From: Octopus vulgaris
Taxonomy: Eukaryota
Direction of reading: 5' to 3'
DNA length: 64,000 bases
NCBI GenBank assembly: GCA_951406725.2
Contig: OX597816.1
Span: 84,320,001 to 84,384,000, forward strand
Shown: positions 44,071-47,296 of the stretch, piece after piece
Numbering within the stretch: the first letter of the stretch is position 1
Layout of the letters: the number at the start of each line of letters is the position of its first letter
Notes under the pieces: model-generated
What the model was told of the DNA's origin: nothing
Database searches by the model: none
The model's input: the letters and a program-made list of their open reading frames with translations, nothing else
Program-made: the position numbers and the translations under genes

Positions 44071-46135
44071 CGTGTCTGTCTGACGTGTTTCTGTATCTCT
44101 TCCTCTTCACTTACCCATTTGTTTTTCATTATTTTCAGTTATTTTATTCATTCTTTCATTATTATTTTGCTTGCCTTCATTCTTACATTCTTAACATTTA
44201 ATTCCTTCTTTTATTTCTTAGCTTTTACTATTTCATTCCTTCTTATATTTTCATTTAATGTTTCATTATTCCACTTTTATTCAGTAATTAAATTTTTCAC
44301 TTACATACATTCCACCATCCAGTAATCATTTATTCATTTACTTCTTATTTTCTTTCTGTCTCTTTTTAAACCGAAACCACAAATGACACATCCACCATTT
44401 TGATTGATATACTTTACATATAAGAGAGCAACATAAATGAAATCTAATAAGGACAAGCAGATAGTTTGATGAGAAAAAATCTGCCCCGTATTCTCAGTTA
44501 CCCGTTTTCCACCCGACTCATTCCACCACCCGCCAATTTAATGTCAAGAAGAAGAAAAATGATCTAGTAAGTTTACTCTCACTCGACACCCACCCATACA
44601 ACTCAAGTATGCGCAGTCCTTCTTTATTTAATAGGAAATTGAAAGCGGATTTATCATTAATGACACTCGGTGAAAATTCGGTAAATAGCCATCCGGGCAA
44701 AATCTGCTGGAATGAACGTCCGGAAACATAACTTATGTTTAATGTGACGTGATTTCTCATACCTTAGCAAGCATTACATTGTTTGTCTAAGAAATCAAAT
44801 TGTTTAAGGTTTCCTGTCTCAGAAATTATCTTGAAATGTTATTTCTATTACGTTTTTGTTTTTCCCTTCGAGATTTCACTGTATTTACCAAATAAATTCA
44901 GGTGTGCACAGCATCGGGTTTTAGCGGCTGGCCAGTTTACTTTTGACCTGGTGCACTGAAGAATATATTATTGACTTTTGTTGTTACTTTGATGCTATCT
45001 ATGATACTTTTGTGTTTTGCGTGTAGACTGTCTTATTGTTTTAACATTATCCTGTTAACGCAATATGTTTGTAAACTGCACTGATTTAGACACAAGTTCA
45101 TACTATCGGTATCAGTAATTGAACATTAAATAACAATAAAATATTTGGTCGAATGTATCGACTTAATCCTTCCTCTCAAAATTACTGTCTTCTTCCCAAA
45201 TCTGAAACGATTATATCTGCAAGGCCATGCATTGAATACCCAGAGCCAGTTCAACTATAACGTTGAGACAGTTCCGGAAAGGGCATTTGCTGTGTCTAGC
45301 GGTTTTCAAAATAATGTTTAAAATTGTGACCATTCGTATAGTTCTCACTGGTGTTCATGCTCTTCTGTTCTCTACTGCTTTCCTTCTTACACAATTAATC
45401 AGTTATTGTTGTCCTTTAAACTTCCATTCAACTAGCTTCCAGTCTTTGTCGAGTTCTGTTAATTCAAACAGAATTCAATCCCATTGAAAGTGATGCTCTA
45501 ACTTTGCTAATACTTGAAAACTTTTTACCAGGAAGGGTTAAGAATATACGCCGGTGGATTCAAATTGCTTCTTGTTTGATTTCGCACATCAGAAATTTGT
45601 TATCTAACATACTTCAAAGAGAATTCCTCTACAAATGCATATCATACTGCATACTATTACTAAAACTAGTGCTGTAATATATTCCTACAATGTCTGCAAA
45701 ATATTCGATATTTGTGTCATGCATTGGCCTTGTGCCACAATTTGAAACAAATATTTATATGATGGTTAATTATAAAATGTGATTATAAAGTCTTTATACA
45801 ACCAATCACTGTAGAATTCTGCAGTCGATTGTATTTATATTGGTTGTATAGGTTACAATTGCCACATCTACAACCTTTCTATATTTCTTAATGATCAGCC
45901 AGTGATCTTTTACGATCAAAATCATTACCTAAAACTTAATATATCAATTCAAATCTAATGGATATATAAACACAGATTAACTTTTGTATCCCTAAGATTC
46001 ATTAGTACAGTTTTGCAAAGGTCGTTTAATCTTACTAGAACAAAACATTTCTCTTACTATATATATAACTAAAACTTCTTACTCTTTCAGCTGTCTTCAG
46101 TCTTCTATCAATGATATGATTATAATTCGGCTACT

Positions 46136-46176
46136 CCACATTCATAAGAGACAACCACCTCGAAACTAGACTGTGG
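46136..46176 (+). ncRNA. Mutated hammerhead copy (G5C, U16A; probably inactive)
   Basis: ccaca|TTCATAA|gaga caacca cctc|GAAA|ctag|AC|tgtgg. Confidence 0.75.
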
Positions 46177-46493
46177 ATGCCAGACAAGCAAAGGGAAGCT
46201 GCTGACCTCCCCTGCTCGAAGGTTATAATGGACACAGGTTTGTGTGTCACATAACTAGCTAGAGGCGATGGCCTCTTGAAGCTAATCAACGGCAGCATTC
46301 GTCCTATTTTTCTGGATTGCCTTGTTAGCTTGGCGATAACTGTTAATATTCAGTACCGCTGCCGTAGTCTCCTTTAGAGAGAATTAGAAATAATATTTCT
46401 ATTTTTGAAAGCCAGTGGATGTAGTCCAATGAATTTAGGTAAATAATCCTTCGAACAATCGGCCAGCAGCGATGCCTGATGGGTTCAGCTACT

Positions 46494-46534
46494 CCATATT
46501 GATAAGAGGCAACCACCTCGAAACTAGTCTGTGG
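46494..46534 (+). ncRNA. Type I hammerhead ribozyme (U3:A8 variant), intact
   Basis: ccata|TTGATAA|gagg caacca cctc|GAAA|ctag|TC|tgtgg; predicted cleavage after 46529. Confidence 0.88.
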
Positions 46535-47296
46535 CTGCCAGAGAAGCAAAGGGACGCTGTGATCTCCCCTGTTCGACGGTTATAATGGACACAGGTTTTT
46601 GTGTCACATAGCTAGCTAGAGGCGATGGCCTCTTGGAGCTAATCAACAACAGCATTCATCCTATTTTTCTGGACTGCCATGTTAGCTTGGCGATAACTAT
46701 TAACATGATAATAATTTCTTTTTTCTTAAAATAGCTGGAATTTACGAATTGTAGGAAATAATATACATTTGTCGAAATCGGTCTCAAATCATGATTGTTA
46801 AAAAATTCATGACTTTTACATAAGAAAAATCGGTCAAGTCTATCAATATACATAATATAGACAACTAAAGGTAAGGAAGGGAACTTGAATTCAGACGTTA
46901 AAATGAAATTTGTTCTTCTACGTTTTCTGTCATTGCACTGCTTTCGAGCCAAAGCGAAAAAAGCTACATAGCTGTTCGACCTTCCGTATTAAATTTTCTA
47001 GAAACTGCAGTGAAATCTCTCGTAAAGGTAATCTTCCGTCTTTAAATAAAAAATGAAAGGGTACATTTGATAATGTGCTTCTAGGCACGCATTGATTTAA
47101 AAAAAAAAGGAGAAATTATGTTACTGGATTGAAATACTTTGATTTATAGTTCTGGTTACTCAGTGACAGCCTGTGGCTAAACAAATACAAAACCGAAAAC
47201 AAAAGCAAAAAAAACACACACACACAACAAGAGCAATGATATGCTAACAACGATATTTACAATAGCCAAATCAACTCAATGCATATTATTATACAC

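Follow-up and report, generated by a model that had tools for sequence, protein, structure and literature searches.

The window, which is the whole stretch of 64,000 nucleotides of Octopus vulgaris DNA analysed here (contig OX597816.1), contains copies of two related families of short repeats, A and B, that carry hammerhead ribozyme motifs. Their features, by window position, are as follows.

46126..46703, plus strand: entire insertion with a truncated 5' end, comprising 1.62 copies of the ~361-nt family A unit
46136..46176, plus strand: upstream type I hammerhead, inactivated (G5 to C at 46143, stem II mismatch at 46151, U16.1 to A at 46170)
46172..46529, plus strand: would-be monomer between both cut sites, 358 nt
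46345..46402, plus strand: 'tail' between the two fixed 3' end sites of the family
46448..46579, plus strand: long imperfect stem that prolongs hammerhead stem I on both sides
46494..46534, plus strand: downstream type I hammerhead with a U3-A8 core and a palindromic stem III, predicted cut after 46529
25488..25845, minus strand: direct arm of a second family member (family B), 0.98 unit, ending at site 1; ends approximate
25840..26089, plus strand: 250-nt arm of the family B copy in inverted orientation, whose end belongs to the site 2 class; coordinates approximate

The insertion at 46126-46703 ends at end site 1 of family A and has no inverted arm. Its segments 46126-46349 and 46484-46706 form a direct repeat at a spacing of 358/357 nt, in which 202 of the 223 aligned bases are identical, so the about 1.6 head-to-tail units of 358 bp reported in the initial annotation are borne out. 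The 358-nt repeat length holds at this locus; the family unit is ~361 nt, however, and the locus is a dispersed insertion and not an array. TRF did not detect the 358-nt repeat. The two fixed 3' end sites that bound 46345..46402 are presumably start sites of reverse transcription, and site 2 coincides with the 3' base of a short hairpin.

A type I hammerhead had been annotated at the same place in each unit with the upstream one mutated, and this is what we found: the upstream motif has the three changes listed above, and family contigs have T at the position equivalent to 46170. In the downstream motif, stem I is CCATA/TGTGG (5 bp) and stem II has 4 bp; GAAA and the palindrome ACTAGT follow ahead of the cut, and in the core TTGATAA (46499-46505) U3-A8 replaces C3-G8. 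The core residues, stems I and II and the NUH cut site are present in this motif and in the family consensus, whereas the upstream motif fails. The description of the downstream motif as intact thus stands for its core and cut site, but not for its independence, since stem III consists of just 2 bp with a 2-nt loop and the motif should need a partner. A strict hammerhead descriptor, modelled on these same motifs, matched two places in the window (46494-46534 and, on the minus strand, 25658-25696) and none in 100 windows shuffled by dinucleotide-block permutation. An Rfam search with the window motifs gave nothing at the gathering score and three weak matches, none of them a hammerhead, and in folding of the single motif the hammerhead was not the minimum-energy structure. 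The monomer 46172..46529 folds at -110.8 kcal/mol (z = -3.5); a long stem brings its ends together, and the ribozyme is located at the tip of the long stem at 46448..46579.

In the genome searched (2.80 Gb, 227 contigs), the family A unit gave 1972 first-look candidates; 40 were scored, which lie on many contigs and, apart from the window itself, are 85-91% identical. The family B unit, ~78% identical to A, gave 2473 first-look candidates, of which 40, also on many contigs, were scored. The intact-core pattern matched 925 times genome-wide and its reversed control did not match at all. The proposal of a non-coding multicopy hammerhead unit of retrozyme size is supported by the data, which show an ORF-free dispersed family with ~2,000 candidate places. 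Unit length across the families is 361-366 nt. Clustering of 98 segments gave groups of 33, 17, 11 and 35 and two outliers, and the distances of these four groups from their own consensus were 7.2, 6.9, 4.3 and 1.9%, respectively. Family D is distant from A and B (62-66% over ~150 nt) and is similar in unit length, ribozyme position and two-end pattern. More ~360-nt hammerhead families, D and its kin, were seen at loci L275-L287 and L288-L320, with C3-G8 or U3-A8 cores and varied stem III palindromes.

The family B copy at ~25490-26090 of the window is younger than the copy at 46126-46703. Its hammerhead (25658-25696, minus strand) is intact, and its inverted arm begins at the cut position. 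Elsewhere, four family B copies with common flanks within ~120 kb of contig C29 (L115-L117, L129) represent a segmental duplication. Contigs assembled from 4 of 24 sequencing runs show that the family occurs under at least two organism labels. Three of these runs are presumed RNA (255, 131 and 67 contigs) and one is probable DNA, and unit coverage is uneven and similar in all of them; none of their contigs covers the flanks of 46126-46703, and assembled contigs cannot reveal RNA ends or circles.

Among 27 distinct rows aligned for covariation, 6 of the 14 hammerhead pairs have changed on both sides and 96.5% of cells are paired, against 56.5% at most in slid controls, although the rows are related and were partly picked by core patterns, few events are counted and the shuffle control overstates the support. 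The variable stem II pair is kept in 53 of 55 pattern matches, and no indel crosses the cut-site junction in 28 aligned rows. As read from these alignments, the hammerhead is maintained by compensatory change. The stem III palindrome alternates between ACTAGT and ACATGT, with four more palindromes in related families, and such switching suits the requirement of a hammerhead that works as a dimer. In double hammerheads, each active site pairs the core of one copy with the cut site of the other. Since the upstream motif has mutations in its core as well as in its cut site, both active sites would be dead in cis under the dimer model, and the window copy at 46126-46703 is probably a fossil, although its layout is source-like. 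The locus had been called partly dead on account of the upstream ribozyme; that it is dead is probable, but on the dimer model the damage would extend beyond the upstream site and disable both. The U3-A8 covariant has been described in Penelope-like elements (PLEs) of Schistosoma, according to the available text of PMC4209133.

How the copies end was determined in 89 of the 173 loci that have the exact 32-mer of the unit 3' end (the first listed, with one overlapping duplicate dropped and some loci already sampled omitted). These contain 142 pieces of at least 34 nt. This unbiased analysis covers family A, since the 3'-anchor pattern for family B caught 2 loci. The 3' ends lie at site 1 in 67 pieces, at site 2, ~56 nt further on, in 60, and elsewhere in 15. 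The 5' ends are scattered; at the cut site, 186-192, one of the 142 pieces begins, so that there is no pile-up and cleaved linear RNA is not a visible template. An apparent grouping of family B 5' ends immediately ahead of stem I was discounted because those loci had been chosen for containing the ribozyme. Most copies are shorter than one unit: a length of at least one unit is reached in 14 of the 89 loci, 1.5 units in 2 and 2 units in none. In a further sample, 0 of 40 loci reached 2 units, and 2 of 26 family B loci did so. The longest copies seen have 2.03, 2.28 and 2.49 units, so the expectation of tandem arrays in the genome was not borne out by the 3'-anchored loci or by any other copy seen. 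Two-hammerhead copies are rare (1 of the 89 loci, and one direct pair among the first 100 of the 925 cores). The 2.49-unit copy, L266, has two intact cores 360 nt apart, and L106 and L112 have two hammerhead motifs each. Two hammerhead positions are present in 2 of 53 family A loci, and the window locus is among such few copies.

A back-to-back inverted arm is present in 46 of the 89 loci. Of 36 inverted pairs that could be classified because both of their ends coincide with a site, 34 have one arm ending at each site (p = 2e-8 against 50:50). Stretches of (TA)n adjoin the 3' end in 57 of 142 family A pieces and 22 of 26 family B loci, compared with 204 of 3713 background windows. Thus 5' truncation, partial tandems, inverted arms, an optional tail and AT-rich or microsatellite targets are all observed in the family, as expected of elements mobilised by PLEs; this insertion signature was overlooked in the initial annotation. 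Truncation, partial tandems, inverted arms and an optional tail are named as PLE hallmarks in the available part of PMC8557442. As described in the text available from PMC11167929, AT-rich DNA is cut on both strands by a PLE protein, which initiates at two sites within the RNA; the tail is the stretch between these start sites.

The unit lacks the RT plus GIY-YIG ORF between pLTRs that marks an autonomous PLE. When PLE proteins were used as tblastn queries, no PLE ORF linked in sense to the 5' side of the unit was found in 130 loci (duplicates included) or in the 89 loci. Matches were obtained in 2 of the 130 loci and 3 of the 89; they lie on the opposite strand or downstream, or belong to old PLEs into which the element has inserted. 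The nearest case is L206, in which a PLE lies in sense 40 nt upstream but is cut at residue 728 of 781. Thirty family A loci have no common upstream flank. These results speak against the possibility, raised as a caveat in the initial annotation, that the unit is no more than a terminal repeat belonging to an autonomous PLE.

A 781-aa RT plus GIY-YIG frame is present in many full-length copies in the genome. For the PLE search, scoring covered the top 150 among 6136 GIY-YIG candidates. At L091 (G000:C16:20834500-20842500), a full PLE is located between direct 456-nt pLTRs. The pLTRs of its family have a U3-A8 core, the ACATGT palindrome also found in family B, and (TA)n flanks, and a ~35-nt tail occurs in 5 of 18 distinct 3' ends. 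No PLE DNA that aligns with the unit was found among 30 + 12 PLE loci, and the L091 family has the core and palindrome alone in common with it; L091 is therefore a candidate partner only. That the partner is a PLE is suggested by the motif and the insertion pattern. The local PLE is read as Neptune-like from its Cys-rich RT-EN linker, a clade label given by motif alone. Exact look-up of two PLE proteins gave no match. A weak match between the tail and PLE loci L098/L099 (E 0.06) was antisense and AT-rich and was discarded. L091 has an additional upstream ORF of ~350 aa with no convincing Pfam match. In the window, a 170-aa frame at 30567-31079 with a YRDD-like motif resembles a PLE reverse transcriptase fragment by eye and was negative in Pfam.

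We interpret the family as a non-autonomous animal (non-LTR) retrozyme-type element mobilised by PLE, with one start site per strand, and assign this reading a probability of about 0.8. PLE protein would nick AT-rich DNA, and reverse transcription would start internally, at either of two sites separated by ~56 nt. If both strands are primed, one from site 1 and the other from site 2, back-to-back arms would result. The rare copies with two intact hammerheads would be transcribed and cleave as a dimer into a monomer, which would circularise, and the circle would be read beyond one turn. For this circle step, i.e., dimer cleavage, circularisation and reading of a putative circular RNA beyond one turn, we put the chances somewhat above even. 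Because internal priming on a linear template shortens copies in each generation, a circle would explain the copies of more than one unit, which recur in old and young subfamilies. The indel-free cut junction in the 28 aligned rows also counts in its favour. Rare variants are common to tandem neighbours in 23 instances against 5.6 expected for unrelated copies in family A and in 14 against 1.8 in family B, a result that fits template switching or a homogenised source as well.

It is also conceivable, and in our view rather unlikely, that the same PLE parasite spreads with no circle. Template switching between linear RNAs or read-through of multimers would then rebuild the tandems, and the fold would be kept for protein binding or occasional processing. 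Template switching accounts for most of the evidence adduced for the circle. Consistent with this, the available text of PMC11167929 describes PLE insertion in vitro for which hammerhead cleavage is dispensable and no RNA-seq ends at the cut site of that PLE. Autonomous PLEs also form partial tandems (PMC8557442), and cleavage was seen in only 1 of 9 Xenopus dimers in the part of the preprint at hand (Li, Clavereau & Pollet 2026, 10.64898/2026.07.22.740005). In the 89 loci and 142 pieces, moreover, long arrays are absent, two-hammerhead copies are rare and 5' ends do not gather at the cut site. Nevertheless, the catalytic core, the cut triplet and the stem III palindrome have been retained through repeated change, the monomer fold places the ends together, and circles come from mussel and coral repeats of such size (PMC7229834).

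Other origins for the copies have much lower probabilities. If they were 5'-truncated pLTRs of an autonomous PLE, the shared hammerhead type and insertion marks would be expected, and a divergent partner could escape queries comprising two PLE proteins and one ORF1. We consider this very improbable, since copies of more than one unit pass from unit to unit without an ORF (14 of 89 loci), and the tblastn matches and upstream flanks described above do not fit it. A satellite or a local tandem duplication, which the ~90% identity of the head-to-tail units might suggest, is hardly credible: the copies are dispersed, with fixed 3' ends and inverted arms, and a 1.62-unit piece is impossible from simple duplication of a shorter insert. 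It is likewise very improbable that monomer or circular RNA is actively produced from the locus at 46126-46703. This locus does have two hammerhead positions, like few other family A loci, and the intact downstream motif could pair in trans; however, the upstream motif has two catalytic mutations, and the subfamily is the oldest measured, at ~7% from its consensus.

The PLE-mobilised retrozyme-type reading places the octopus family among animal retrozymes, a class already known. It resembles the non-LTR retrozymes described in PMC7229834 and the 2026 preprint, as far as their available text goes, in its non-coding unit within 150-450 nt, type I hammerhead, multicopy state, high self-pairing, lack of LTR features, many monomers and few dimers, and co-occurrence with PLEs; mussel units are 350-390 nt (PMC7229834). 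It differs in its U3-A8 core and in that no long arrays were found, and its circles are putative. Since mostly monomeric retrozyme families are reported in the accessible portion of the preprint, absence of arrays does not exclude membership. PLE mobilisation is read here from insertion ends, whereas in the retrozyme literature it is read from co-occurrence or pLTR similarity. The same portion of the preprint calls animal retrozymes non-autonomous PLE derivatives and samples 31 vertebrates and 4 invertebrates, with no mollusc among them. No description of a cephalopod retrozyme was found in the literature at hand, the available text of PMC10886601 included; the supplements of PMC7229834 and of the preprint may list some. 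With canonical EN+ PLEs that have hammerheads in their pLTRs, as far as described in the available text of PMC4209133, PMC8557442 and PMC11167929, the family shares 5' truncation, partial tandems, inverted arms, an optional tail, microsatellite flanks and a dimer-type hammerhead with palindromic stem III. Unlike them, it is ORF-free, its tail is ~56 nt and not 30-40 nt, and its hammerhead is located ~170 nt from the 3' end within a long stem.

The family thus adds evidence from invertebrate insertion ends to the vertebrate case made in the preprint for the dependence of retrozymes on PLEs, and its pair of ends corresponds to the two internal sites at which a PLE was shown biochemically to start. 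The use of one site per arm (34 of 36) is a testable prediction on how PLEs prime both strands. With a 360-nt template, a young subfamily diverged by ~2% and many full-length PLE ORFs, an in vitro test of trans-mobilisation is feasible.

A Tx1-like LINE lies beside hammerheads of the related families. At L265 (G000:C1:68118500-68127500), a candidate for a PLE flanked by units, the two same-strand family D cores 5.65 kb apart enclose a LINE instead. It has zinc-knuckle, APE endonuclease, RT and zf-RVT domains, falls near the Tx1/L1 clusters, is bounded by a ~17-nt duplication, and is the one LINE copy of which both flanks were seen. The LINE 3' end occurs 37 times (L265, L277, L279, L284, L288-L320). 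In 34 of the 37 it lies directly upstream of a related-family hammerhead, or in 31 of 34 when the three ends first found via the ribozyme are excluded, and later PLE co-mobilisation may inflate this count. Behind the 37 ends, 25 sequences passed the automatic hammerhead test (14 intact) and 7 more were recognisable by eye; of the other ends, 2 adjoin family copies with partial deletions, and in 3 the target motif is succeeded by the apparent 5' end of another LINE (1 near-identical, 2 related). The hammerhead core begins 25 nt after the junction ATCG in 20 of 24 measured cases (range 23-32 nt). The core, the stems and the palindrome all vary among the ribozymes behind the LINE, a diversity that speaks for targeted insertion on repeated occasions and not for one transduction. 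A LINE at this position upstream of the hammerhead was not found in any family A or B locus (one short match lies elsewhere).

Families of Tx1-clade LINEs are known to target repeats, e.g., Tx1 inserts into Tx1D, Keno into U2 and Tx1-Mar into Mariner-N4, as given in the available text of PMC4494074. The octopus LINE is like them in being an APE-RT LINE that occupies a single position in its multicopy target, and in showing a short duplication and LINEs in tandem. In contrast to the targets known from that text, its target is a hammerhead retrozyme, and the LINE lies in sense orientation 23-32 nt, in most cases 25, upstream of the core; a hammerhead target for a Tx1-like LINE was not found in the literature text at hand. 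LINE targeting of hammerhead elements is the most surprising part of this study. The genome may contain a system of three tiers: an intact PLE; dimer-hammerhead retrozymes of ~360 nt, an old superfamily spread by the PLE via circular RNA and asymmetric twin priming, with one strand per start site; and a Tx1-like LINE specific for a site ~25 nt upstream of the hammerhead, where the ribozyme might serve to cut the LINE 3' end. We hold this combined reading only tentatively, at slightly less than an even chance; in it, the LINE targets the related families (D and kin), families A and B of the window excepted.

At L292 (G000:C2:109083900-109084600), two LINE-plus-hammerhead ends face each other ~500 bp apart. 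The window contains, at 33480-33845, two tandem copies of a 183-bp unit that are 93% alike and SINE-like by eye. Frames that by eye resemble fragments of mariner transposases and non-LTR retrotransposons are located at 4677-4997, 17221-18359, 58819-59902 and 61918-62523.
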